Positions 6,006 to 58,235 of a DNA stretch of 64,000 nt are shown here, in pieces. The notes beneath the pieces are model-generated. The model saw nothing but the letters and a program-made list of their open reading frames with translations, was not told where the DNA came from and did no database searches. The stretch's first letter is position 1; each line of letters opens with the position of its first letter. Source of the DNA: a virus (Duplodnaviria > Caudoviricetes); the IMG/VR virus record IMGVR_UViG_3300032233_002382, positions 243,778 through 307,777 of that record; one strand, written 5' to 3'. Both the position numbers and the translations under genes were made by a program.

Positions 6006-6018
6006 TGTAATTTGACAT
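6006..6018 (+). promoter_or_regulatory. TG-TANNNT -10 element directly before a start codon (leaderless type); example of a recurring motif
   Basis: TGTAATTT-gacat-ATG. The same pattern precedes starts at 12217, 13480, 16487, 49214, 52540 (minus) and 53115 (plus). Confidence 0.6.
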
Positions 6019-7719
6019 ATGCATGGTAGATCTATACCTCAATATTTCATTAGAAATCCACCTGAAGAACCAAGATATCAAGAAAGACTCAAGTTAGAGC
6101 TAAGTTGGTTTGAAAATACGGTAGCTGAAGACTACATACTGACCGTAGCTGAAATATGCCGCAACATTAGAGACATACCCCATACGATCAGGGGATCCGC
6201 TGGATCGAGCCTTGTCATATACCTTCTTGGCATCTCTGACATCGACCCAGTTAAATGGAATATAGCTCCAGAGCGATTCTTTCATCCGAAACGCAAGGAT
6301 CTCCCCGATATCGACTTGGACTTTCCAGATATAAGAAGAGAAGAAGTATTTGACAGAATTCACCAGTTGTTCCCAAATCGAACAGCACGAATATCGAATC
6401 ATATAACATACAAAGACAAGAGTGCGATTCGCGAGGCGATTCGTAGGTTAGGAGTTCGAAAAAAGCTGCCTCGAGGCTTTAAAATACATGAAGTGGTACC
6501 GGGTCGAGAGACCGATGCAATAGAAATAGCGGCAGATCTAAAGGGGCAAGTAAGAGATCTATCTCTACACTGCGGTGGAGTCATCGTGTTCGACAGAGAA
6601 GTTCCGCCAGACATTCGGATGAAAGAGAAAAAAGGCCAAATTAGAATCGATAAGTTCGAAACCGATATCATGAACTATTTTAAAATCGACATTTTGTCTA
6701 ATATATCGCTAACTCAGCTCAATGATTGTGATTCAAGACCAATACTAGAATATCCTCCTGAAGACGCAAAAATCACTGAAATGCTTAGCCAGGGAAAATC
6801 TTTAGGTATTACGCAAGCAGAATCACCAGCATTTCAGAAAATGCTAAGAGCAGTCAAACCTAAAAGCGTAAACGATATGATAATGTGCATGGCGCTTATT
6901 AGACCGGCGTCAGCCTGGAGAGGTCATAGAGTTAACTTCATGGAGGAATGGAATAAAGAACGAGATACTGAATTCCTTATATTCGAGGATGACGCCACGA
7001 AAGTAATTCAAGAGATATCAGGTCTTTCGGGTCCCGAAGCTGACGCTCTTAGAAGAGCATTTGTTAAAAGAGACCACGAAGCCACTGAAGATTTCAGAAA
7101 TCTGATATCACACCGAGATGATGCTCAGACGATCATAGATGATCTTGAAGCATTCAGGTCGTTCAGCATGTGCAAGTCCCACTCAGTTGCATATGGTCAC
7201 GTGGCCTGGGCATTAGCGTGGCAAAAAGCACACAACACGAAAGCCTTCTGGAAGTCGGTGCTTAACCGAACTCAACCAATGTGGAGACCGTGGGTCCATG
7301 TCGAAGAAGCCAAGCTTGCTGGATGGAAAGTGATCCCAGGAAAGAGACCATTTGCAGTGAAAGACGATACGCTTATCGGGCAAGAGTACGTACCGCAGTT
7401 ATTTAAATCGGACCCATGGTGGGAGCTTAAAAAGTATAAAATGTGGTCAGGAAATGAGTTCCCTAAAGAGTGTTACCGAAGCGATGACGGAGAAAGAATT
7501 GAATTCTACGGAATAATCGGAACGCACCGGATACTTAAGAGAAAAGATGGACAAGCAGTCACGTTTGCTACAATAGGAACATCGCCAGGATCATATGTAG
7601 ACTTGATACTAGAGGGAGCTATAGACCTAAAGAGGTATCAAGCAATTCAAGGCAACGGTGAATTAGGGATTAAATTCGGCTCCGAATTTACGAAAGTCAA
7701 ACAGTACTCTATACTTTAA
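6019..7719 (+). CDS. dnaE: DNA polymerase III alpha (family C), compact, lacking the PHP domain
   Basis: RGSAGSSLVIYLLGI.DIDP, PDIDLDF, HCGGV, KIDIL and F.KSHSVAY motifs; only 566 aa. Confidence 0.88.
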   Translation: MHGRSIPQYFIRNPPEEPRYQERLKLELSWFENTVAEDYILTVAEICRNIRDIPHTIRGSAGSSLVIYLLGISDIDPVKWNIAPERFFHPKRKDLPDIDLDFPDIRREEVFDRIHQLFPNRTARISNHITYKDKSAIREAIRRLGVRKKLPRGFKIHEVVPGRETDAIEIAADLKGQVRDLSLHCGGVIVFDREVPPDIRMKEKKGQIRIDKFETDIMNYFKIDILSNISLTQLNDCDSRPILEYPPEDAKITEMLSQGKSLGITQAESPAFQKMLRAVKPKSVNDMIMCMALIRPASAWRGHRVNFMEEWNKERDTEFLIFEDDATKVIQEISGLSGPEADALRRAFVKRDHEATEDFRNLISHRDDAQTIIDDLEAFRSFSMCKSHSVAYGHVAWALAWQKAHNTKAFWKSVLNRTQPMWRPWVHVEEAKLAGWKVIPGKRPFAVKDDTLIGQEYVPQLFKSDPWWELKKYKMWSGNEFPKECYRSDDGERIEFYGIIGTHRILKRKDGQAVTFATIGTSPGSYVDLILEGAIDLKRYQAIQGNGELGIKFGSEFTKVKQYSIL

Positions 7720-11138: not shown

Positions 11139-12217
11139 CCCCTACCGGCGGGACCAAAGGCACTTCCTGGGCTGCTACCAACTCCCGCCTTGTCTATCAT
11201 ATAGTCCGTAAAAGCCACGTCATTGGCTTCAGACTTCAGCTTTGTCCAAAGGAAGAAGGAACCTGAGGGAGTGAATGTTGTAAAATGTGGAGAATGAAGC
11301 AAGGCGTCTAATAACAAGTTACGTCGATTTTCATACTCCTTAGCCATTTCCGTCTGATGACTATTCCCGATCGAAAGAGCCGTCACAGCACCATATTGAG
11401 CGACACTGTTCACCCCGTTTGTACTACACCTGAGCAATTTCTTAATACGATCAAGAACTGGCTCGTTATTCGATACGACATAACCAATCCTTAGACCGCT
11501 CATTGCATAGCTCTTAGAGGAGCTAAATAAAGAGATAGTTCGATTATATGCACCAGGTAGAGAAGCCACGCTTACATGTTTTAATCCGTCGAAAATCACA
11601 TGTTCGTAAGCTTCATCAGACACAATGATCAAGTCATACTTTTCTGCTAGATTAACGAATTCCTTTAAAACTGACTCAGAAAGCACGACTCCAGTTGGAT
11701 TATGTGGAGTATTTAGGAAAATAGCTTTGGTATTGGGCGTAATATAACGCTCGACCATGTCCGCTGTATATGGATTGGGCTTGCTTAGGTCCATGGGACA
11801 TCTAACAGCATAGCCACCAGCTAGTCTAATATTTTCTGCAATTTCGGTCCACATCGGATCCGGAATAATCACTTCATCATTGGTTTCGAGAATCGAAGCA
11901 AAGGTTAAGAAAAGTGCATGCATTCCGCCACTAGTGACCACCACATGGTTTGGGTCAGATACCGGTATATGATTTGATCGGCGGCATTTTTCGACAATCG
12001 CACGACGCAGTTCGACGATTCCAGCTGACGCCGTGTAATGTGTATAGTCTTTATCTAAAGCATCGCGCATAGCCTGCTTAACTTCCGGATGGACTGCGAA
12101 GTTCGGATCTCCAGACTCCAGTCGGTATACCTTACGGCCTTGAGACGCCAAACCGAGCAAGCGGTCTCTGACGGTTACAATCGCACCGAAGCTAATCTGG
12201 TCTAATTGAGAAATCAT
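11066..12217 (-). CDS. PLP-dependent aminotransferase class I/II (aspartate aminotransferase-like)
   Basis: GDPNF, NTPHNPTG, SDEAYE, S.SKSYAMSGLRIGY (PLP Lys) and PGSAFG...YIRF motifs. Confidence 0.92.
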   Translation of the reverse strand: MISQLDQISFGAIVTVRDRLLGLASQGRKVYRLESGDPNFAVHPEVKQAMRDALDKDYTHYTASAGIVELRRAIVEKCRRSNHIPVSDPNHVVVTSGGMHALFLTFASILETNDEVIIPDPMWTEIAENIRLAGGYAVRCPMDLSKPNPYTADMVERYITPNTKAIFLNTPHNPTGVVLSESVLKEFVNLAEKYDLIIVSDEAYEHVIFDGLKHVSVASLPGAYNRTISLFSSSKSYAMSGLRIGYVVSNNEPVLDRIKKLLRCSTNGVNSVAQYGAVTALSIGNSHQTEMAKEYENRRNLLLDALLHSPHFTTFTPSGSFFLWTKLKSEANDVAFTDYMIDKAGVGSSPGSAFGPAGRGYIRFAFSCSTDHLAQAIVALKSI

Positions 12218-12232
12218 GAGACACTTTACAGA

Positions 12233-13480
12233 TCAAACTAGAACATGCTTGTTGTTACTCTCTTCAGATGAATCACGGTTGCGCCAATATGGGGGTTGGT
12301 ACCTCCATCGTCGGAAGCTACGACCTTCACCGTAGGCCTGGCGCATCCAAAAACCCGACACAAGCGTGCGAACTCGACGGACATTTATACTTTCGCTCGA
12401 GTTTTCTTCCGGGCTCCAAAGGGTTATGGAACGCCCAAGTCTAATTCGATTTTGAGGTATCAACTTCTTAAATCGATCTTTAAGGTCATCTTTCTTTCTT
12501 CCCTTAGGCAACTTCGAAATTCGATTCCATAAAGCCCTAGCTTCGTCATTGGCCATGAAGTGCTCGACCTCAACATCCGGCCAGGTGGAATACATAACAA
12601 CATTCATCGCCCAATTAAAAAGGCCTTTCCATTCAGTTCGAAAAATATCACGAGCTTTCTGGTCGATGATGAGAGTGCTATCATCGACCACCCTTTGCTC
12701 ATTCGAAAGAATGTCTGAAATCGGCGTGTTCTCAGGTAGCTCTATACTAAAGTGAAAAAGAGCATCGTCGAAGGCATTAGTACCATCATGTGCTGTTCCA
12801 ACAAACAAAAATCTCCACGTTCTGACAGGCTTTGAAGGATCCTCTCCTACAGGGTCTTCCGTAAGATAAAATCCCTCAAGTTGATGCCAGCCCGTTTCTT
12901 CATTATATAGCCGAAGATTATTCGACTCAGACTTAGGGATCATCACATAGATACTGGCATAAGGCATGCGCAAATCATCGGAATTTATTCCACGCAACTC
13001 AGTATGCCGTAATCGTTCAGCCAAACCCGGCGAGACTTCGTACACTTTCTTTCCCGCGTGCTCATGAATCAGATAACACCAATTCTGAATCATTCCAGTC
13101 AGCGCTGAAGCATAGAACGCTTTTTCATCAAGATTGGGATTGTATGACTTGTAAGCAGAAAGTACCATAACATTAAACTGCTGCATCAAATCAGAATTGG
13201 CAGATAAAGAAAAACTATATGGAGTCGAAGCCGACTCCATCGACTTCGAAAGAATCTCAATAGTCAGAGCAGCCAGCTTTTGAGTGTAAGGATTAGAGTA
13301 AAATCGGTCATCCACCGCCTTCGAACGAATCGAACTACCCGAACCAGAAATAATGCTCTGAGATTTCAAGTTATGTAGATAATTCGCATAGCAAAGCAAG
13401 CCTAGTTTCTCGAAATCCTGCTTAGCTTCTGTACGCTTGCTATTAAAGAATTTGTAAGCACGTTCCCAGTGGGTTAGCAT
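12233..13480 (-). CDS. conserved-type phage hypothetical protein
   Basis: 415 aa; C-terminal V.GFW.RQAYG.G......PYW resembles a widespread phage (R/H)GHW..Q.YG motif family. Confidence 0.6.
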   Translation of the reverse strand: MLTHWERAYKFFNSKRTEAKQDFEKLGLLCYANYLHNLKSQSIISGSGSSIRSKAVDDRFYSNPYTQKLAALTIEILSKSMESASTPYSFSLSANSDLMQQFNVMVLSAYKSYNPNLDEKAFYASALTGMIQNWCYLIHEHAGKKVYEVSPGLAERLRHTELRGINSDDLRMPYASIYVMIPKSESNNLRLYNEETGWHQLEGFYLTEDPVGEDPSKPVRTWRFLFVGTAHDGTNAFDDALFHFSIELPENTPISDILSNEQRVVDDSTLIIDQKARDIFRTEWKGLFNWAMNVVMYSTWPDVEVEHFMANDEARALWNRISKLPKGRKKDDLKDRFKKLIPQNRIRLGRSITLWSPEENSSESINVRRVRTLVSGFWMRQAYGEGRSFRRWRYQPPYWRNRDSSEESNNKHVLV

Positions 13481-13528
13481 AGATTAATTTACACTAAACA
13501 AGAGTCCGCAATTCAAGACGCACATACG

Positions 13529-14056: not shown

Positions 14057-14722
14057 ATGTATCGTGTAGGCATGAGTGTAGATAAGATAAGGATAGCCAA
14101 CCGGATTGCTAAAGGGAAAACATCAGAATTGGTTGGTCAGGACCCAGACGTAAATCCGGACCTTAAAAATCCAGAGTCAGTTTCTGGACATAACGATCTA
14201 ATAGATATCCCCAACGTACGTCAATATAATGATTTTACGTGCGGATCTGCATGCTTGCTGGCGATACTGGCTTATTATGGGAAATATGACGGTAGAGAAG
14301 ACGACCTCGCAAGCGAATTACGAACAAATCCGATAAACGGAACAAATGCCGATGACATAGTTAAAATCGCAAGAAAGTTCGGCCTAAACGCAGAGCGTAG
14401 AGAAAACGCGGACCTTAAAATAATCGAATCATCACTTAGACGAAAAACGCCGATTATAGTGAACTTTCAAGCCTGGAGCGATTCTGGATCAGACTACAGG
14501 CACAGCAACGAGGATGGTCACTACGCCATAGTAACAGGCATGGACGACGAAAACCTGTATTTTCGAGATCCATCCATGAACGGAAAGATCGGCCGATTAT
14601 CAAAAGCAGATTTTATGCAAAGATGGCATGACGAAGACGCACAATCTGACGTGGAACGGATGTGCATACTATTTCACGATAATATGATCCCTAGAATCGA
14701 AGAGATAGAGTATATAGGATAA
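14057..14722 (+). CDS. C39-like cysteine peptidase with N-terminal RIANRIA motif
   Basis: Q...FTCGSACL (Cys), GHYAIVTG (His) and FRDP (Asp). Confidence 0.85.
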   Translation: MYRVGMSVDKIRIANRIAKGKTSELVGQDPDVNPDLKNPESVSGHNDLIDIPNVRQYNDFTCGSACLLAILAYYGKYDGREDDLASELRTNPINGTNADDIVKIARKFGLNAERRENADLKIIESSLRRKTPIIVNFQAWSDSGSDYRHSNEDGHYAIVTGMDDENLYFRDPSMNGKIGRLSKADFMQRWHDEDAQSDVERMCILFHDNMIPRIEEIEYIG

Positions 14723-48231: not shown

Positions 48232-49214
48232 TCGTCTAAAACTCCTGCTTCAGCAGCCTCTAGTACCTCCTCAGCAGTGCGCCTTAAATCATCAGGATAT
48301 GACGTTAACATATTCCGTATTTCAGTGTGCGAGTCAACCGTAAAACTCGACTTTAACTTCGATATGAAATCAGAGAGGTCTCTTTTCTCATGATCCAAAC
48401 GTTTCTTAAGATCGAGATCAAAGATATCATTTGCATCTTCACAAGGAATCAGTATCTCCTCGGCGTCCAGACCATTAGCGGTTACGGTAATCATCGACAC
48501 TTTTGGTTTACGATTTAAATTCTCGAACGTCAATGCACCTCTGGACACAGAGCCTAAATTAATAAATTTTACGCCAAGATGATCATATATTCCTTGATCT
48601 TTATGGTAGTGACCAAACACATAACAGTCGGGACCACCATCGAACACTAAGTCCCGGTAATCATGTATCGGCTCATTAAAGAAGCTCTGTATTTTCTCTT
48701 CGGGCGCAAATGACGAAAGCGCATGAACTACTGCCACCAAGATATCGTCATCATGGGTTTTACGAACCCTTTCACGCAGGTTATCCGTAGTCAACAAAGG
48801 ATCGTAACTCACCCCAACAATGCGCACGCGCCGATTTCCAACATCGAACACACTATTAGTTAATTCCCTGAAAATACCAGTACGATATAAAACACCGAGC
48901 GGCTGCCCTCGCATGACGCTTGTTATATCATTATTCGTCATGTCATGATTGCCGGAGAGCGCCAAAGTCGGAATAGAAAGATCCCGGTGAATAGCGGCCA
49001 CGGATTGAATTGTCGAATGACTTGTACGGTTTGCCGCCTTAACGTGGAAAAAATCTCCGCCACGAATTATCGCATCTGCATTAGATGACACGGCAAGATC
49101 GACCTGCCACTGAAGCTTTCTTAAAATGCTCGAACGATAATCATCCTTTCGAAATCCCGGAGGCTGGTCTGATAAATGCTCGTCGGTCGAGGTAATGATT
49201 CGAAATTTTGACAT
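48228..49214 (-). CDS. sbcD: SbcD/Mre11 metallophosphoesterase nuclease
   Basis: TDEH, GGDFFH, GNHD, VVH and FGHYH motifs. Confidence 0.85.
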   Translation of the reverse strand: MSKFRIITSTDEHLSDQPPGFRKDDYRSSILRKLQWQVDLAVSSNADAIIRGGDFFHVKAANRTSHSTIQSVAAIHRDLSIPTLALSGNHDMTNNDITSVMRGQPLGVLYRTGIFRELTNSVFDVGNRRVRIVGVSYDPLLTTDNLRERVRKTHDDDILVAVVHALSSFAPEEKIQSFFNEPIHDYRDLVFDGGPDCYVFGHYHKDQGIYDHLGVKFINLGSVSRGALTFENLNRKPKVSMITVTANGLDAEEILIPCEDANDIFDLDLKKRLDHEKRDLSDFISKLKSSFTVDSHTEIRNMLTSYPDDLRRTAEEVLEAAEAGVLDE

Positions 49215-49222
49215 AGAGAATT

Positions 49223-49516
49223 TTACATTCGTTGAACATGCGATACTTCGACCAAATTCGATAACTCAGACCATAAGCTAGCGGGAAAATCAATAGAGGA
49301 TTTCAAAACACGATATCCGGTCTGATCTTCAATGATAGTGCAAACCGAATGCTTACTGAGAGCACCAGGAGAATCTACATAGCGTAGAAGCGTGGCCGGT
49401 ACCACATATATATAAAAGACTGACTTTGAAAAAAGGACCGATTCATATAGAATGGCGTGATAACGGCGAGTAGCCACTTTAAACTCAAAGATGTGATTTC
49501 CGACTTTAAGATTCAT
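49223..49516 (-). CDS. hypothetical protein
   Basis: 97-aa ORF coupled to recD. Confidence 0.5.
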   Translation of the reverse strand: MNLKVGNHIFEFKVATRRYHAILYESVLFSKSVFYIYVVPATLLRYVDSPGALSKHSVCTIIEDQTGYRVLKSSIDFPASLWSELSNLVEVSHVQRM

Positions 49517-51750
49517 GACTTCGTAATTTGCTTGACAACAGCCGTATCATAGCTTGAGTCAATGAACTTAGATAGATTCGAGTTTCGATGAAGATCGCGT
49601 ACGCTCGAGATACCTCGATTTAAAGCACTCACGTCTCCAATAACGAAGACCTTCTTCCGAGCTCGAGTAATAGCGGTATAAATTAAGTTCTTATATAGCA
49701 TTGCTCCATACTGGTTAGTCATGGGCATTACCACATAATCGAATTCCTGACCCTGAACCTTATGCGCCGTACATGCATAAGCAACTCGCAACATACTTTT
49801 TGCTTCATCGACGGTAAAAGTAAAAATATGGTCCGAAAATTTCGACCCAGTCGAAGAGTTATCGATCCAATTAAATATCTTAACTTCGACTTGATCAGAT
49901 TTTAAATCGATGCTATGAATTTTCCCAACGTCACCATTATAGATACAACGCTCATAATCATTCTTGATAACCATTACACGGTCGCCTTCACACAATCCGA
50001 CGTCCACATTTTTAATATAAGTTTTACGTTGATCGCTCGGAACTGAATTCAGTACCGATCTCAATTCTAAATTAAGACTATTGACACCCAAGGATCCATC
50101 ATACATCGGGGCAATTACCTGAAAGTTCTTCTTTAAGTCTCTCAGCCTTACACACAGCTTCTTTATCTCGGACAGAACATCGGATTGTGCCATAGGCAAA
50201 ACGATGAATTCCGAATCTTTATCAAAGCCGAAAGTCAGATCCTCGCTCTTGAGAATCGAATGAGCTACGGTAATAATATCAGACGTCTTGCCTTGTCTAT
50301 ATATCTTGGTCAACGACACATGAGGTAACACTTTGGTGCTAGAGACATTTGACAGAACGCTCCCGGAGTTGACAGAAGGTAACTGAGCGGGATCTCCCAC
50401 CATAATGATTTGAGTCGTAGGAAGAATCGCGCTAACTAAGCTAAAAAACGTAGCAGAGTCAACCATCGACATTTCATCGATGATGATCGCATCGACACAG
50501 TATTTATTACCAGAATGAAATTCCCAAGTTCCGTCCTTCTTGTAACCTAAAGCCCTGTGAATTGTAGAAGCTGGCCTGTTGGTTACTTGTGAAAGCCGCT
50601 TTGCGGCGATACCCGTAGGTGATAACAAAACATAGTTAAGTTTGCATTCCTCAAACACATGTACGAATGCGGAGATGATGGTCGTTTTACCGGTTCCTGG
50701 AAAACCTGTGACAACGCACCCTCTGGATTTCGTAAGCATCAAGAGCGCATCTTTCTGCTCATCTGACAGTTTTATATCATGGCGTCTTTCAAAATTAGTT
50801 ATGATGTCCCACAGTCCGTCTATTTTTAGAGCGGGGGAGACTAATATCGAAGACAAAGCGCTTGCAATGCCTGCTTCATATTTAAACTGGTGAGAAAGGT
50901 AAATACAATCATCAACAACGACAAGCTTCGAGTCTGCTACTAATTCCGACAGAGCTGGATAAAAATGCGACTCCGAGATATAATCCCCATGACTAAAGGG
51001 TTCTACATTATTCTTGAATATTCTCTTACTTGAATAATCGAAAATCTGCTTAGATGATACAAAAATATGACCTTCGTTAGAGCAAAGTTCAGAAATGGTA
51101 TATAAAATCAATCCTTTAACGCGTTTGATATCGTCAACACCAATGCCAAGTTTACGAGCGACCACATCGGCAGTAGAAAATCCGACTCCTGGTACTTCAC
51201 AAAGTTTGTATGGATCTACCGACAAAACCTCTCTAATGTCGGTCTTAAAATAAGTCAGAGCTCCCTTTATCTGTGATGAAGACAACCCCATCGAGGACAA
51301 ATAGATGGTGTTATCTCTTAAAGAATTAGCGGTCGACCATTCAGCGATGATTGCAGCGGCCTGATTCTTCGTTAAGAACGGCAATGTATTAATTATCGAG
51401 GGATCTTTATTCAGAAGTTCAATAGTGTCGTCCCCAAACACATCATAGATCCGCAGGGCCGTGATTGGTCCTATGGAGGGTACATGAGCAGTTAAATATG
51501 ATGTGATACCGCTTTTGTTCTTTTCAGCGGTAATTTCGCAAACCGAAGCAGTCAGTTGATTACCATAGGTGGGATGATTTTCAAATCGACCCTGGAATGT
51601 AGCCTTTAATCCAGTACTTATGTTCGTGTTAGGGAAGACACCAGCCACTCGGATCACGTTCCCATCAGTAAGCGAAAGCTTTAAAACATGGAACCCGGTA
51701 TTTTTGTTGCTAAAGACCACATTCGTTACTTTCCCGCTAACCGATTCCAT
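49513..51750 (-). CDS. recD: RecD2-like SF1 helicase
   Basis: N-terminal OB and HhH domains, GFPGTGKTT, PTGIAAKRL, TIHRAL, IIDEMSM, VGDPAQLP, IYRQ and AYACTAHKVQGQE. Confidence 0.92.
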   Translation of the reverse strand: MESVSGKVTNVVFSNKNTGFHVLKLSLTDGNVIRVAGVFPNTNISTGLKATFQGRFENHPTYGNQLTASVCEITAEKNKSGITSYLTAHVPSIGPITALRIYDVFGDDTIELLNKDPSIINTLPFLTKNQAAAIIAEWSTANSLRDNTIYLSSMGLSSSQIKGALTYFKTDIREVLSVDPYKLCEVPGVGFSTADVVARKLGIGVDDIKRVKGLILYTISELCSNEGHIFVSSKQIFDYSSKRIFKNNVEPFSHGDYISESHFYPALSELVADSKLVVVDDCIYLSHQFKYEAGIASALSSILVSPALKIDGLWDIITNFERRHDIKLSDEQKDALLMLTKSRGCVVTGFPGTGKTTIISAFVHVFEECKLNYVLLSPTGIAAKRLSQVTNRPASTIHRALGYKKDGTWEFHSGNKYCVDAIIIDEMSMVDSATFFSLVSAILPTTQIIMVGDPAQLPSVNSGSVLSNVSSTKVLPHVSLTKIYRQGKTSDIITVAHSILKSEDLTFGFDKDSEFIVLPMAQSDVLSEIKKLCVRLRDLKKNFQVIAPMYDGSLGVNSLNLELRSVLNSVPSDQRKTYIKNVDVGLCEGDRVMVIKNDYERCIYNGDVGKIHSIDLKSDQVEVKIFNWIDNSSTGSKFSDHIFTFTVDEAKSMLRVAYACTAHKVQGQEFDYVVMPMTNQYGAMLYKNLIYTAITRARKKVFVIGDVSALNRGISSVRDLHRNSNLSKFIDSSYDTAVVKQITKS

Positions 51751-52540
51751 TTTGACCCTCGACCATCTTCAGGAAATCGGACTCGGTAATGACCGGAACA
51801 GAGTATTTCCTCGCCTTCAACGATTTAGAAGAATTTGAACTTTCGTTAGAAATTAAATATGAAAGTCCGCTAGTCACAGAATCCTTAACGATCCCACCAT
51901 TGTTCAAGATGGTAGTGTGGAGGAATTTCCGAGGCATTTGAGTACTGCCGGTAACACAGAAAGACTTTCCCGAAAGTCGACCGTTGTCAGCATCGAGAAT
52001 CTCAAGTTTACTGGCTAGCAATCGAATAGATTCCGATTGTTCAGCTAAATGATCAAAAATACTCTGAGCAGTCTTTAAACCAATGTTTGGTATCTTCTCT
52101 AGGTCATCGACAGATAAGGATAGTATAATGTCTAGATCTTTCGCGCCGTGTAGCACCATGTCGGTAGCAGTAGATGTACCCAAGTTTGGAATGTTTAATC
52201 CGGACAAAAATTTAATTAAAGTCAGCCGCTTAGATGAATGGAGAGTTCCGTAGCATTTACTAGCGAATTTTATCCCAGAACAATGTAACGCAATCTGATC
52301 CACAGTAAGATCATATATATCCGCCACCCGACTAACACTAGTCAGGTCGCTGGAAGTCAACGAATCTATTAGAGCATCACCCCAGTTAAGAATACCGAGG
52401 TGGTCAATCCAGTGCTTGATTGCCCCAGACATGCGAGCCGGGCAGTTCCTGTTATCGCAAAACAGGAAAGATCCGTGGTCCCGTAAGGATAGACCACATG
52501 AAGGACAAGAAGTAGGTAGTTCAAAGAATTGTCTTATCAC
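51737..52540 (-). CDS. ligA: NAD-dependent DNA ligase, C-terminal part (Zn finger, HhH, BRCT) as a separate gene
   Basis: LPTSCPSCG...FCDN..CP, L.IPNLG, IPNIG.KTA and BRCT GKSFCVTGS...GG....SVT...YLI...S.K..KA...V.VITE. Confidence 0.88.
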   Translation of the reverse strand: MIRQFFELPTSCPSCGLSLRDHGSFLFCDNRNCPARMSGAIKHWIDHLGILNWGDALIDSLTSSDLTSVSRVADIYDLTVDQIALHCSGIKFASKCYGTLHSSKRLTLIKFLSGLNIPNLGTSTATDMVLHGAKDLDIILSLSVDDLEKIPNIGLKTAQSIFDHLAEQSESIRLLASKLEILDADNGRLSGKSFCVTGSTQMPRKFLHTTILNNGGIVKDSVTSGLSYLISNESSNSSKSLKARKYSVPVITESDFLKMVEGQNGIG

Positions 52541-52567
52541 ACACCATAATACATTCGGAACCGGGCA

Positions 52568-53062
52568 TTAGTCGGATTCTTTCTCTGAACCGGAAGCCTC
52601 TGATTCTGAGGATTCAGGAGCATAGTCAAACTCAATGTCGAGGTCTTCTTGAGAACCAGACCCCTCAGAGGCTTCTGGAGTTTCTCCGGCGGGAACTGGA
52701 GATTCCGGAACCGGCATAGGAGCAGGTGAGGGCGCTTCTCCACCAAAGACATCATCAGATCCATAGATATCAGATTCTGACATCTTGGCCTTGCCTTCAT
52801 TAAAGGCCTTTGAGAACGTCGATAGCTTTCCACCTATCCCTAAAACACCCTCAGAGATAGTTTCGAGTTCAGATAATTCATGACCGGTAAAATCACCCTG
52901 CAGACGTGCAAGCTTAGCATACAGGACGTGAGCGTCTTTCAAGACATCTGCAATATAAGAGTTCACACGCTGCCATTCCGCATCTTTATCAGCACTGGCA
53001 GCCAGGCGGTTGGTAGACAAGGTTTTGAAAACCGATCGAGCAACCGAATTTAAGTGTGACAT
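52568..53062 (-). CDS. acidic hypothetical protein between the ligase halves
   Basis: Likely ATG at 53062 (GAGGG SD); RLAAS motif; acidic Pro-rich tail like the virion-cargo-type ORFs. Confidence 0.6.
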   Translation of the reverse strand: MSHLNSVARSVFKTLSTNRLAASADKDAEWQRVNSYIADVLKDAHVLYAKLARLQGDFTGHELSELETISEGVLGIGGKLSTFSKAFNEGKAKMSESDIYGSDDVFGGEAPSPAPMPVPESPVPAGETPEASEGSGSQEDLDIEFDYAPESSESEASGSEKESD

Positions 53063-53114
53063 GTATATACCCTCATTTGCACATTTCAAAAAGGATCTAG
53101 TGTAAAATACTACC

Positions 53115-54218
53115 ATGAATAAAATAAAAGAATTAAGCGAACTGGTACTAAGAGCGCAAGAAGCATACTATAACCTCGATCCAATTATGTCTGACGCGGA
53201 ATATGATGCTCTACACGACGAATTAAAAAGACTGAACCCTGAAGCTCAAGCCGTAGTCCGAATAGGAGCCGCACCCATTTCGCAGTCCCCATGGGAAAAA
53301 CGACCACATGAGATACCTATGGGTAGTCTAAGCAAAGTTACAACCGTAGACGAATTTGAAGAATGGGTTAAGGGGATTGGGGATACAGAATATTTTATAA
53401 CAGACAAATTCGATGGGATATCGTTAGAATGTATATATGATGAAGGAATATTTCAGCATGCGGTCACAAGAGGAGACGGAATAGTCGGAGAAGACGTTAC
53501 TAAAAACGCCACTTACATACCGAACATCCCAAAGACGATCACGATAAAATCTAGAGTAAGCGTTAGGGGTGAAGTGATCCTTACCAAAAAAGCCTTCAAG
53601 GACCATTTCTCAAGCAAGTATGCAAATACTCGAAATACGGTGGCTGGCAAAATTAGAGATACTAAAGAAGGAACGGTTGCAGCTGTTCATTTTAAATTCA
53701 TAGCGTTCGATCTAATAGGGATTAACACGGAGAGTTTCGATGCAATGTTTAAAGAATTAAAAAGATTCGGGTTTGAATCCCCAGATTTTCACGTGTCAGG
53801 AAACCACCATAAGGTTTACGAGGAGTATCTCAAGAGAAAAAATGACAGAGAAGCTTTGGATTATGATATTGATGGATGTGTGATTAATGTCAATGAAAGA
53901 ACCAAATTCCTAGAGTTGGGTAATGAGAACAGTAGACCACTAGGAGCTGTGGCGTTTAAATTCGATCCAGCAATGGCCGTATCTAAAATCTTAGATGTCA
54001 AGTGGTTTACTGGAAGCACCGGAAGAGTTAGCCCGGTAGCAATAATCGACCCCGTGAACGTGCAAGGAGTGGTGATTTCTAGGGTGTCTTTACAGAATAA
54101 AGAAGCAATGCTTAATCTCAAATTGTTTAAAGGAGCCAGGGTACTAGTATCTAGAAGAAACGATGTGATACCGTACTTACAAGAAAACCTTGATATTAAT
54201 TCACAGGATGAGTTTTAG
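53115..54218 (+). CDS. ligA: NAD-dependent DNA ligase, N-terminal part (domain Ia, adenylation, OB)
   Basis: YY...P.MSDAEYD, H..PMGSL.K, KFDG, A.TRGDG..GEDVT, VRGEV, NTRN..AG, IDG.V, AFKF, TGRV.P and RRNDVIP; stops before the Zn finger. Confidence 0.92.
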   Translation: MNKIKELSELVLRAQEAYYNLDPIMSDAEYDALHDELKRLNPEAQAVVRIGAAPISQSPWEKRPHEIPMGSLSKVTTVDEFEEWVKGIGDTEYFITDKFDGISLECIYDEGIFQHAVTRGDGIVGEDVTKNATYIPNIPKTITIKSRVSVRGEVILTKKAFKDHFSSKYANTRNTVAGKIRDTKEGTVAAVHFKFIAFDLIGINTESFDAMFKELKRFGFESPDFHVSGNHHKVYEEYLKRKNDREALDYDIDGCVINVNERTKFLELGNENSRPLGAVAFKFDPAMAVSKILDVKWFTGSTGRVSPVAIIDPVNVQGVVISRVSLQNKEAMLNLKLFKGARVLVSRRNDVIPYLQENLDINSQDEF

Positions 54219-54441
54219 ATAGCATAGACTCTATCATTTCCATGGACTCAAAACTCACACAAGTAAGACGTACTTTCTGATCCATCAACGACTTTAGTAA
54301 ATCCTGCAGAGATAAAGCCACACCATCTTCATCTACTATCACATACTCATTCTTGTCCTTATCAAACAACACTTTTCCGTCAATTATGAGACCCGCATCA
54401 AAACCGTTAGTAAATCTATCTCTGACATTATCGTAATCCAT
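54196..54441 (-). CDS. hypothetical protein
   Basis: 81-aa ORF converging on the ligA N-half. Confidence 0.55.
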   Translation of the reverse strand: MDYDNVRDRFTNGFDAGLIIDGKVLFDKDKNEYVIVDEDGVALSLQDLLKSLMDQKVRLTCVSFESMEMIESMLSKTHPVN

Positions 54442-54450
54442 AAATTACGA

Positions 54451-54493
54451 TACTAATCGGCCCCTGCTAATCAGTAGCAGGGGCCGATTAGTA
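54451..54493 (-). terminator. terminator hairpin after the RNR gene
   Basis: 19-bp stem tactaatcggcccctgcta / tagcaggggccgattagta. Confidence 0.75.
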
Positions 54494-54512
54494 ACTTCGT
54501 GTTTACTGCCTA

Positions 54513-57329
54513 CTAGCTGCAGCCCGTGGTGGTTCCACAGGCTACACACAGATAACAAGAACCGTTTCTCTGAGTGATGGAGCCGCATCGGTTACAAGGA
54601 GGTGCATCAAGATTACGCTTTGTCTTTGGTTTCGCCGACAGAGCTGGAGCGCTTGAAGATATTCCTTCATTTAGGGGCTCTGAAGACTCCATCTGGCTTA
54701 TCCTGTCAGCAAGACCCGAATGCTCACCGCCGTAATATCTAACATCTAGGACTTTAAACAGATAGTCATATAAACTCTTAGAAAACCTGATCTGCTTATT
54801 GCTCGTGATACCGGCAGGCTCAAACCTCGTATCGATAAAGCTACCGATGAGCTTAGGCAAAGGTATACGGTACTGCAAAGCAATACTCAATAACTGAGTG
54901 AAGCCGTTCATCAGACCAGATATGGTGCTACCTGGTTTTCCTAGGCGCAGAAATACCTCACCGGGGCGACCGTCCGGATATTCATTTACGATTATGTACC
55001 CTCTATAACCATCAATCTCGAATTTATGGCGCCAACCCGAGACATCATTTGGCATGGGGTCTCTGATTGCTTCGATCGAGTCAGGTTTGCGGGTTGAATC
55101 CACTGAAGCTTCCACAACCGGTTCATTTTTAACGCCAGCATCAGAAGCCTTCGTCGCAAGAGGCTGAGAAGCCTTGCAACCGTCACGATAAAGCGCAACG
55201 CATTTCAGACCAAGACGCCAGCTTTCTAAATAAATATCGGCAATTTCCTGAACCGTAACAGTCTTTGGTAAGTTGACAGTCTTGCTTTGCGCGCAGGTAA
55301 TAAGAGGCTGGATCGCAGCCATCATTTTTATGTGTGCAAGCGGGGTAAGATACCTTCCTGAAGTTCCTGACGGCATCGCACAGTCAAAGATCGCAAGGTG
55401 AGCAGGGTTTAAACCAGGAGCTCCTTCAATGCAATCATTCTCTTCGATGTACTTAGTGATCGTATCTACAGCATCGTTTGCGTATCCGAGATTTACTAAG
55501 CTATCGCGGACGGCTGCATTAACAAGCTTGATGTAACCACCACCAACCATCGATTTATAGCTTACTAAAGAAAAGCTTGGTTCTATCCCGGTAGTATCCA
55601 TTCCCATCAAGAACGAAATGGTGCCCAGAGGTGCCTGAAGAGTCGCTTGTGAAATGTTAAACCCATACTTACTACCAAGTTCGATCACGGATGACCAGAC
55701 TTTAGCAGATTCCTTTACTATATCCTCTCCGATAGGATCAGAAGGTAGTTGCCACCTACTAAGAATTTTATCGTTCGCCTCCGAATGCTTATGCATGATT
55801 CCAAGCATGTCTTCCTTATTCTTCTCGAACTCGGCAAATGCACCCACACGAGCAGCGAGCTTGGCTGCATTAAGGTAAGTCAAGCCCGTCATCAAGCTTG
55901 CTAAACGCGCAGCTACGGCTCGTCCACCATCTGAATCATAGCTATACCCTAGCTTCATCAGAAGCGCACCTAAATCACCATAGTTTGTACCGATCGGTCG
56001 AAGTTTGTGAGAGTTCGAAGTTATTTCATCCGTAGGGTAATCCGCTTTTGCAATAATTGCCATCTGAGAAGTCGTAAACAACCGAATAGCTTGCTTAAAC
56101 CTCTCGTAGTTAAAGTCTTTTCCGTCGAAAAATTTGGTTAAGTTCACTGCACAAAGGTTACAAGCGGTGTTGTCGACATGAAGGAACTCACTACACGGAT
56201 TAGAAGCTTTGATCTTTCCACTCCTAGGAGTGGTGTGCCAAGAATTTATTGTATCGGTAAACTGAACGCCAGGATCACCACACACCCATGCAGCTTCTGC
56301 TATTTCATTCCATAGGTCTCGAGCTTTGTAATTGTGGACAGTTTTTCCAGTCTTGCGCTCTTTGGTTTGCCAGGTCCCATCATCTATAACCGACTGCATG
56401 AACGCATCCGGAATACTTACAGAATGGTTGGCATTCTGGTACATAACGCGCTTGTATGCACCATTAGGGTCATCATAATTGACACTATATCCAATATCAA
56501 CCAGCTGGTGAGCTAGCTTTTCCTCAACGGCCTTGCTCCTGATAAAGCCAGGACGATTATCCTTGGTCTCGAGAATGTCGGGGTGATCCATATCCAAGAC
56601 AACCATCTTTGCAGCGTTACGCGTACTGCCGCCTGATTTCATCGCCATAGCATACTGATCAAGACCTCGCATCCAGCTCATCGGGCCAGACGTGTAAGAC
56701 CCTGAGGCTAATTTTTCGTAAGAAGATCTGATGGTCGAAAGGTTAGCTCCAGAACCACTTCCGCCAGCAAAAATAACAGATTCGCTTTTTTGGAAATTCA
56801 TGATGCCATCTAGTGTATCATCAACTCCGGAAATAAAACAGGCACTCGCAGCCTGCCGTCGATTAGGTATCCCAAGATTAAACCAAACGGGACTATTGAA
56901 GGCGCCATACTGGTGTAGCAAAGCAAAAATAAGTTCTTGGTTAAATACCAAAGCATCATCGTCTGATTCGAAATAATTCTGATCTTTAGCCCAAGAAGTT
57001 AAGGTGTCAGCCACTCGGGTAAACATCTGCTTAACAGAGGATTCTTTAACTCCATTAATCACGCGAAAATACTTGTCTGCAACGATATTAATTGTGGTCT
57101 GATTCCACCAAGCAGGTACTTCCACGCCTTGTTGTGAAAATGCCACAGACCCGTTGGACTTTCGGATTTCGGCATCAACGATCTTCCATTCAATTTCATC
57201 AAATGGATGAACTCCAGGTTTAGTAAACACTCTGGACCAAGTCCCTATCTCTTTAGTTACATCACTTTTAATGTTTGACTTTGAGTCCACCATTGACAGA
57301 ATGAAAGTACTAGCGCTTGCTGATGACAT
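54513..57329 (-). CDS. nrdJ: class II (adenosylcobalamin-dependent) ribonucleotide reductase
   Basis: FNSPVWFN, SACF, NPCSE, CNL, APxGTISF, GIEP and YRDG motifs; C-terminal TSCPD-like domain and CxxC...CxxC ribbon. Confidence 0.9.
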   Translation of the reverse strand: MSSASASTFILSMVDSKSNIKSDVTKEIGTWSRVFTKPGVHPFDEIEWKIVDAEIRKSNGSVAFSQQGVEVPAWWNQTTINIVADKYFRVINGVKESSVKQMFTRVADTLTSWAKDQNYFESDDDALVFNQELIFALLHQYGAFNSPVWFNLGIPNRRQAASACFISGVDDTLDGIMNFQKSESVIFAGGSGSGANLSTIRSSYEKLASGSYTSGPMSWMRGLDQYAMAMKSGGSTRNAAKMVVLDMDHPDILETKDNRPGFIRSKAVEEKLAHQLVDIGYSVNYDDPNGAYKRVMYQNANHSVSIPDAFMQSVIDDGTWQTKERKTGKTVHNYKARDLWNEIAEAAWVCGDPGVQFTDTINSWHTTPRSGKIKASNPCSEFLHVDNTACNLCAVNLTKFFDGKDFNYERFKQAIRLFTTSQMAIIAKADYPTDEITSNSHKLRPIGTNYGDLGALLMKLGYSYDSDGGRAVAARLASLMTGLTYLNAAKLAARVGAFAEFEKNKEDMLGIMHKHSEANDKILSRWQLPSDPIGEDIVKESAKVWSSVIELGSKYGFNISQATLQAPLGTISFLMGMDTTGIEPSFSLVSYKSMVGGGYIKLVNAAVRDSLVNLGYANDAVDTITKYIEENDCIEGAPGLNPAHLAIFDCAMPSGTSGRYLTPLAHIKMMAAIQPLITCAQSKTVNLPKTVTVQEIADIYLESWRLGLKCVALYRDGCKASQPLATKASDAGVKNEPVVEASVDSTRKPDSIEAIRDPMPNDVSGWRHKFEIDGYRGYIIVNEYPDGRPGEVFLRLGKPGSTISGLMNGFTQLLSIALQYRIPLPKLIGSFIDTRFEPAGITSNKQIRFSKSLYDYLFKVLDVRYYGGEHSGLADRISQMESSEPLNEGISSSAPALSAKPKTKRNLDAPPCNRCGSITQRNGSCYLCVACGTTTGCS

Positions 57330-58221
57330 CGGCCGCCTCTTCAGAGTATCTAATGATCTCTGATTCTAAAAGAAACTCTGCTAATTCTGATCCGGTTTTG
57401 TGAGCTATTTCGATATCGGTAAGACACCTTAGAGATTTCTTCATCGATTCAATGGTCCAGAGACCTTTGAGCGGTGAAAGAAAATTCTTAAGCACGAACG
57501 ACGGAACGCCTATTAGTGAAGCTATCTCATCGGCGCTGCGATTTTGTGTTAGGTAATATTCGAACTTATACAGCTGTTCAAAATGATTCTGTAGGAATGC
57601 GACAATCCAACCGGTTTCATTCTTTGATTCTTGTAGTTTATCATAGTAAGCGATCGCGGCATTTTTGTTCCCCAGGTTTATGGCGTCGATTATAGACTTA
57701 GGTGTTAACTCAGACGAGAACACCATGATTGACTTGGCCACATCAGCAGAAAGTGCACTACCAGATGAGACCAAATCCGATATTTTCCTAATCTCGGAGT
57801 CTAACTTCCGAGGACGATTTCCAGAATTCACAAAAAGAGCACTAGAGATCTTGCTTAGATCTATATTAAAGTTAGCGCCACGATTCAGGATAAATGACTG
57901 AATGTCGTTCATAGAATAATGTGTTTTCAGCGGAGCACACTCTTTTAAATACACATTGTTCGGCACTTCAAGTTTATTGGGAGAAGAAAACAGCACTAAA
58001 TCTTTATCTACAAATCCAAAGTCTAAATACTTCGTAAATCGACGAAAATGATATACGTATCTCTCGGAAGAGTCATTGTTTAAGCTAAGTATTTCATCTA
58101 TTCTTTCAGGAAGCACGTCATCAGAAAACGTGAAAACTCTGTCACATAAATATGCGTTTATTTCAGATTCAACGTACTTACTAACAAGAAATTCTTCTCC
58201 ATAAACATGTAAGATCGTCAT
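57310..58221 (-). CDS. holA: DNA polymerase III delta subunit-like
   Basis: LHVYGEEFL, G......LDSEIRKI, I..IIDAI..G...A and C-terminal L..L..I...K.G. Confidence 0.7.
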   Translation of the reverse strand: MTILHVYGEEFLVSKYVESEINAYLCDRVFTFSDDVLPERIDEILSLNNDSSERYVYHFRRFTKYLDFGFVDKDLVLFSSPNKLEVPNNVYLKECAPLKTHYSMNDIQSFILNRGANFNIDLSKISSALFVNSGNRPRKLDSEIRKISDLVSSGSALSADVAKSIMVFSSELTPKSIIDAINLGNKNAAIAYYDKLQESKNETGWIVAFLQNHFEQLYKFEYYLTQNRSADEIASLIGVPSFVLKNFLSPLKGLWTIESMKKSLRCLTDIEIAHKTGSELAEFLLESEIIRYSEEAADVISKR

Positions 58222-58235
58222 TGTTAATCGTACAT

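Follow-up and report, generated by a model that had tools for sequence, protein, structure and literature searches.

The window analysed here is the terminal 64 kb (positions 243,778 to 307,777) of the 307,777-bp IMG/VR virus record IMGVR_UViG_3300032233_002382 (Caudoviricetes; CheckV completeness estimate 72%), and it contains an NAD-dependent DNA ligase (LigA) whose modules lie on two open reading frames (ORFs) of opposite strands and not on a single polypeptide. The N-terminal half (N-half, gene ligN) lies on the plus strand at 53115..54218 and codes for a 367-aa protein with the Ia NAD-binding region, the adenylation domain with KxDG lysine K98, and the OB fold. The C-terminal half (C-half, gene ligC) lies on the minus strand at 51737..52540, has a GTG start and codes for a 267-aa protein that comprises a Cys4 zinc finger, HhH and BRCT. 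Both ORFs are found at the positions and on the strands given to them by a first-pass annotation of this DNA, and Pfam, PHROG and PDB mapping underlie the assignment of each half. Only one LigA adenylation domain is present in the whole phage genome record.

Specifically, Pfam identified in the N-half the adenylation domain DNA_ligase_aden (PF01653, E 8.8e-46) followed by the OB fold DNA_ligase_OB (PF03120, E 1.1e-16, residues 290-359). The N-half match to Nlig-Ia (PF22745) is weak, at 22.9 bits under its 27-bit cut-off, and N-half residues Y18, D27, Y30 and D31 align with the NMN-binding residues Y22, D32, Y35 and D36 of E. coli LigA. For the C-half, Pfam found HhH and BRCT, the Pfam ZBD model gave no match on the window protein, and the zinc-finger cysteines C12, C15, C28 and C33 are present. 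The two proteins share out the 656 positions of the full-length PHROG ligase profile without overlap (7-382 for the N-half and 389-654 for the C-half), and E. coli LigA (PDB 2owo) is aligned at residues 14-387 by the N-half and at 404-669 by the C-half. All three mappings agree with the earlier claim that the cut lies in the linker between the OB fold and the zinc finger (OB|Zn linker), with no domain missing or duplicated. The reported absence of intein motifs also holds, as Pfam detected no intein or Hint domain in the window halves and the tails left at the break, 12 aa past the OB domain and 7 aa ahead of the zinc finger, are too short for a split intein.

We compared this locus with three fetched contigs carrying N-half-only ligases and with 80 IMG/VR loci that were classified by script. 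N-half-only ligases (345-412 aa, 38-50% identity) formed more than 100 clusters in a protein search, many of them on contigs of 270-620 kb. The layout of the window recurs in 18 further loci from different metagenomes, and the N-halves of these loci are just 43-50% identical to that of the window, indicating that the arrangement is old and inherited. The order common to these loci is RecD2 helicase(-), ligC(-), a gene for an acidic protein(-), ligN(+) and a small ORF(-), with a class II ribonucleotide reductase (RNR) gene(-) further on. In a tree of N-halves the 18 opposite-strand loci form, together with one further locus (L004), a clade with 100% support whose sister clade is mainly fused. 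Among 30 aligned N-halves the KxDG residues K98, D100 and G101, the RGE residues R151-G152-E153, the DGxV residues D253-G254, and K282 are invariant, and the Ia residues Y18, D27, Y30 and D31 are invariant or nearly so. The four zinc-finger cysteines, plus many HhH and BRCT positions, are likewise invariant in 21 aligned C-halves. Judging from these alignments, both halves are under selection. They also remain near each other in all of the split members sampled (19/19), usually 0.5-0.7 kb and at most ~2.5 kb apart.

The gene between the two halves was called unrelated in the first-pass annotation, a claim that did not survive the comparison with relatives. It is an acidic ORF of 164 aa at 52568..53062 on the minus strand; its frame is open up to 53116, and an alignment of 16 homologues points to M19, at 53062, as the likely true start. 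The protein has a helical core followed by an acidic proline-rich tail. Neither Pfam nor PHROG gave a match to it, and its Atlas model is just a helical hairpin with generic helical hairpins as structure neighbours. This ORF is kept in every clade member and is always divergent from the ligase N-terminus, even beside the fused ligase gene of one relative (L090, described below), and for this reason it belongs to the block that was inverted. A role of the acidic protein as a third, bridging subunit of the ligase was considered and rejected, since the gene also adjoins the fused ligase in L090.

The first-pass annotation further proposed that inverting approximately 52541..54220 would set the halves end to end. 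Inversion of the acidic ORF together with the N-half predicts the order RNR, acidic ORF(-), ligN(+), ligC(+), RecD2(+), and exactly this order is present in two relatives, L004 and L090, with 18 loci sharing the opposite-strand layout. The halves in L004 are separate genes with a TAA-a-ATG junction, and those in L090 form one fused 633-aa ligA gene (L090:1282-3183) in the co-linear orientation. Comparison with these two loci places the left junction of the inverted block at 52541..52567, the stretch from the C-half start to the acidic-ORF stop. The right junction is at 54196..54218, where the 3' end of the N-half overlaps by 23 nt the 3' end of a convergent ORF of 81 aa (54196..54441, minus strand), and no terminator is found between the N-half 3' end and this convergent ORF. 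At the left junction, the acidic ORF and the C-half share a reading frame, with nine codons from the stop codon of the former to the start of the latter, which is probably a coincidence. The C-half 3' end overlaps the start of the RecD2 helicase gene by 14 nt (51737-51750).

The tree built from N-halves only could not place L004 within the clade. A concatenated ligN, ligC and RecD2 tree, rooted on 13 fused outgroups, has L004 as sister to the rest with an SH-aLRT value of 87, or 90 after adding L090, which is moderate support only for a basal placement. The genes of L090 always have opposite-strand L011 as their best match (57-71% identity), and the concatenated tree nests L090 in the clade, with support of 96 for its pairing with L011 and of 100 for its grouping with L020/L023. 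When the opposite-strand rows were kept together without L090, the resulting tree was rejected by an AU test (p 0.02, for a group that was defined post hoc). A past inversion is supported by these comparisons, its direction and the number of events less firmly. The most parsimonious history would begin with a split, followed by one inversion and, in the lineage of L090, by a re-inversion with re-fusion; alternatively, L090 could be explained by a long-lived polymorphism of arrangement plus recombination between phages. The inversion implied by the first-pass annotation is supported by the co-linear loci, and it probably did not make the split.

What may have made the split is suggested by other giant-phage lineages. 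A gene for a TnsA-like PD-(D/E)XK endonuclease of 271-287 aa, with an N-terminal zinc-finger motif, sits exactly between co-linear ligase halves in L048, L072/L075, L091 and L092 and overlaps both at its ends (L048:7091-7906, L072:3972-4835, L091:7124-7945 and L092:7109-7936; the contigs of L091 and L092 are 619 kb and 436 kb long). These cases are scattered over several places of the ligase tree, which indicates that a homing-endonuclease-like gene has landed in the OB|Zn linker repeatedly. The occurrence of this gene at the junction in unrelated lineages also suggests a site-specific homing element for the linker. No endonuclease gene is present between the halves in the window. Phage genes split by endonucleases are known from Aeh1 nrdA (mobE), T4 genes 39/60 (mobA) and phage 25 gene 43, and the Aeh1 enzyme, the phage 25 gene 43 product and T4 topoisomerase stay active when so divided (PMC2988022). 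As in the window, an essential replication enzyme is divided in these cases at a domain boundary, and there the pieces reassemble; unlike in the window, the endonuclease is present between the pieces, whereas the window halves have none between them and are on opposite strands. By analogy, the OB|Zn linker of a fused ligase gene may first have been cut, plausibly through a homing-endonuclease gene of the TnsA-like kind seen in the sister lineages, after which loss of the endonuclease gene would have left two self-sufficient genes. Inversion of the block made of the acidic ORF and the N-half would then have been harmless to genes that were already separate. We infer that the split more likely preceded the inversion, possibly by way of such an insertion.

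Each half is preceded by its own TG-TANNNT element, as the first-pass annotation had stated. The element TGTAAAAT at 53101..53108 on the plus strand, 14 nt upstream of the N-half ATG, is a candidate promoter of -10-like type, from which a leaderless or near-leaderless mRNA would be made. The element TGTATTAT at 52546..52553 on the minus strand is 13 nt upstream of the C-half GTG and within the 27-nt spacer past the acidic ORF, indicating that the C-half has a signal of its own despite sitting so close to that ORF. These elements are conserved in relatives, where a GTAnnnT core (mostly TGTAnnnT) occurs 13-14 nt ahead of the start codon in 18/18 clade C-halves and in 16 of 19 N-halves. Within the window, TGTAnnnT at that offset precedes 8 of the 62 ORFs of at least 100 aa versus 0.45% of all start-like triplets, or ~29x background, and both ligase halves are among the eight (sites through to start at 6006-6021(+), 12215-12230(-), 13478-13493(-), 14058-14074(+), 49212-49227(-), 52538-52553(-), 53101-53117(+) and 58219-58234(-)). 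The signal emerges only when matches are tied to real gene starts; counted plainly over the whole window, TGTANNNT-N(4-7)-ATG occurs no more often than by chance (10 versus 8.2 expected). TGTAnnnT looks like a phage promoter class that yields leaderless or near-leaderless mRNAs: if TAnnnT is the -10 hexamer, transcription would start at or beside the start codon.

Another element, AAAGGATCTA at 53090..53099 on the plus strand (consensus AAAGGGYYTA), lies in the intergenic stretch that separates the acidic ORF from the N-half and is found at the same place in ~14 clade members and in L090. There is no other close copy of it in the window, and AAAGRRYYTA is not a general window motif. This element therefore looks, on its distribution, more like an operator specific to the locus than like a general promoter. 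A scan of the window for sigma-70 promoters and terminators gave no more sites than in shuffled sequence, the sole notable site being a hairpin at 54451-54493, in the gap that separates the 81-aa ORF from the RNR gene. This hairpin has a perfect 19-bp stem and a 5-nt loop; it resembles a terminator or may be a processing site, and no clear T run follows the stem.

A ligase of two polypeptides that are cut at this same boundary is already known. The NAD-dependent ligase of phage T5 consists of subunits ligA (AAU05253) and ligB (AAU05254) (PMC3632103), and the T5 family is also represented by a solved NAD ligase of two chains, PDB entries 9hu3 and 9i5i (LigB match E 7e-47). Both window halves match the chains of this enzyme, the C-half mapping to chain B of 9hu3. 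As in the window, the T5-type enzyme is cut at the OB|Zn boundary, its N subunit holding adenylation domain and OB fold and its C subunit zinc finger, HhH and BRCT. A T5-like Vibrio phage also has its ligase cut at the OB|Zn boundary with co-directional genes. In T5-like phages the co-directional genes are separated by ~0.4 kb, which contains a small ORF, whereas the window has divergent opposite-strand genes with a start signal each. Both window halves match the PHROG half-ligase families phrog_3359 and phrog_3498. They score 348 and 153 bits against the full-length phrog_3869 versus 197 and 110 bits against the T5-type half families, and they group with the fused ligases of giant phages, nearer to these than to T5-type halves. 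The higher full-length scores and this grouping argue that the split here probably arose independently of that in T5. Our literature search found no paper for PDB 9hu3/9i5i and none on the biochemistry of the T5 two-subunit ligase. When compared with single-chain LigA (E. coli 2owo and T. filiformis 1dgs), the window agrees in its six modules and their order and in the conserved catalytic and NMN-binding residues, at ~30% identity and on two polypeptides instead of one.

With these precedents, we consider it likely that this phage makes a two-subunit NAD ligase from genes that were split long ago and then inverted, and that the opposite-strand layout is a fixed, ancient block inversion inherited by the whole giant-phage clade. 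The phage would express two polypeptides separately and build its NAD-dependent DNA ligase from both. All of the chemistry, namely self-adenylation from NAD+, transfer of AMP to the 5' phosphate and nick sealing, would reside in the N-half (Ia, nucleotidyltransferase and OB), and the C-half (zinc finger, HhH and BRCT) would supply a DNA-binding clamp, with the halves associating non-covalently on nicked DNA in the manner of T5-type LigA/LigB. The conservation of both halves over 18 diverged genomes fits a working two-subunit enzyme, and replacement of the split form by the fused L090 gene in the same genomic context, at 64-71% identity, suggests that the two forms are functionally equivalent. 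On these sequence comparisons the two-piece ligase is real and almost certainly functional. The anatomy, conservation, gene order of relatives and common start signals are observed; association of the subunits, ligase activity and the order of events are what we infer from them. The first-pass annotation had said that this looks like a domesticated two-subunit ligase, and a working enzyme of two subunits fits the conservation, the two-subunit form as such being already on record from T5.

Association of the halves was also examined by complex prediction, a check that the first-pass annotation had listed. The N + C complex scored 0.56 against 0.02 for the best control (runs with at least 62% of contacts in common, partner pLDDT at least 81), a pass that may reflect memory of solved full-length LigA. 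Of the 80 solved complexes in the benchmark of this method, 58 attained the mark, as did 2 of 110 mismatched pairs, and scores of 0.60 or less comprise only seven of those 80 solved complexes plus both passing mismatches. The prediction thus lends weak support to association of the N-half with the C-half. A stronger case than the prediction is made by the conservation of both halves, their persistent genomic linkage, the fused form in a close relative and the direct precedent.

Several other explanations of the layout and its origin were weighed. The layout might be an artefact of assembly, or the segment might be invertible, so that some of the phage population has a contiguous ligA. Either would be conceivable for a metagenome-assembled contig whose sequence is in one run only: among public sequencing runs, the region is contained in a single DNA run, the probable source sample, and in zero RNA runs. 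However, an independent Logan assembly of that run, made by a second assembler, contains 51000-55200 in one contig with zero differences and no alternative joints, a comparison that shows continuity only. Inverted repeats bordering the block are limited to chance-level pairs, and a flipped block would still be two ORFs, given its stop codon and separate start codon. There is also one orientation only in the Logan contig and a fixed orientation in the 18 relatives, which are independent assemblies of identical layout, so that the behaviour of a Gin/Cin/Hin-type switch is not observed. The layout is neither a misassembly nor a DNA switch, and we give the artefact explanation next to no probability. 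Megablast of the region against the GenBank phage collection gave zero matches, and tblastn against deposited phage records gave relatives at no more than 35% identity, indicating that the clade is missing from the deposited phage records searched. Far more weight is due, although we still hold it to be unlikely, to the idea that the inversion itself split a co-linear fused ligA in the linker, with the stop codon, start codon and promoter recruited at the junctions later. The fused co-linear L090 lies inside the clade, L004 may be a frameshifted fused gene, and one break position is common to all opposite-strand members, as a single event predicts. Under such a history, however, the C-half would have needed a working start codon and a TGTAnnnT element at the breakpoint immediately, and the nested L090 would demand either several identical inversions or a reversal regardless, whereas the sister lineages show a simpler route at the exact site by way of an endonuclease gene.

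Turning from origin to function, the halves might no longer cooperate, the N-half being a minimal ligase or adenylyltransferase and the C-half an independent HhH/BRCT DNA-binding or recruitment factor that is expressed with RecD2. Their separate strands and start signals, the translational linkage of the C-half to RecD2 through the 14-nt overlap and the weakly supported interaction are in line with this, as is a second, ATP-dependent DNA ligase that the same phage carries outside the window (G000:C1:52327-53559, equal to L089:1252-2484; minus strand; PF01068 + PF14743). Against this stand the close placement of both halves in every split member sampled, their fusion in the close relative L090 and the T5-family enzyme that was solved as two chains. 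In addition, deletion studies of E. coli LigA reportedly found that fragments without zinc finger and HhH self-adenylate but seal nicks poorly. We therefore regard independent halves as improbable. The second ligase could also mean that the halves are decaying pseudogene remnants, redundant beside it, but both frames are intact and the catalytic and structural residues are invariant across a clade diverged to 40-50% identity, which makes decay hardly credible. About as doubtful as independent halves is a further proposal, that the separate start signals let the phage regulate assembly of the ligase. In that case the C-half would be expressed with the RecD2 operon and the N-half from a divergent promoter that is shared with the acidic protein and carries the operator-like AAAGGGYYTA site, the fused, split and inverted architectures would be reversible within the clade, and active ligase would form only when both transcription units are on.

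The two-subunit ligase from split and inverted genes remains our preferred explanation, and the following points tell against it. The sole DNA run with the region is the probable source sample. The presence of an ATP-dependent ligase in the genome means that LigA need not be essential. Carrying both kinds of ligase is itself unusual for one phage, as a survey of jumbo phages describes ATP- and NAD-dependent ligases in largely exclusive phage subsets (PMC7824862). Ahead of the ATG in L004 the C frame stays open, making a 1-nt error in a fused gene possible. Finally, the nested position of fused L090 would require re-inversion and re-fusion or a long-lived polymorphism of arrangement, and the order of events is not secure.

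While two-subunit NAD ligases cut at the OB|Zn boundary are already known, what is new here is the opposite-strand layout fixed across a clade, the separate start signal of each half, and the occurrence of all three forms (fused, split and inverted) in related loci. We know of no description of opposite-strand placement for the classical endonuclease-split genes. The locus provides a clean natural case in which a multi-domain replication enzyme tolerates a cut in a linker plus the loss of co-transcription. The fused, split co-linear and split opposite-strand forms, occurring in one clade and in the same context, also constitute a comparative set for studying how an untethered catalytic core pairs with its clamp. 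The finding leaves knowledge of ligase chemistry unchanged. It does carry a warning for annotation, in that pipelines will label such genes as truncated ligases or hypothetical BRCT proteins.

The relatives display additional mobile or variable sequences around this locus. The borders of the inverted block are hot spots for insertion (L010:7314-7829, L016:7343-7861, L012:7390-8598, L020:4230-5945 and L022:8828-10264), with cargo that includes a phosphoribosyltransferase, an RtcB RNA ligase, a TPP-dependent enzyme and an LRV/HEAT-repeat protein. We considered whether these border inserts are endonucleases and rejected this, as they are mostly unrelated cargo instead. The RecD2 and RNR of the window are intein-free, and LAGLIDADG-bearing inteins occur in the RecD2, ribonucleotide reductase and DnaB of relatives (L008 1-2696, 4038-4985 and 6439-10485; L091:98-2953). 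In one of these relatives, L008 (GCA_902731255.1, a 383-kb contig), the acidic ORF and the N-half are also separated by a free-standing gene for a LAGLIDADG endonuclease.

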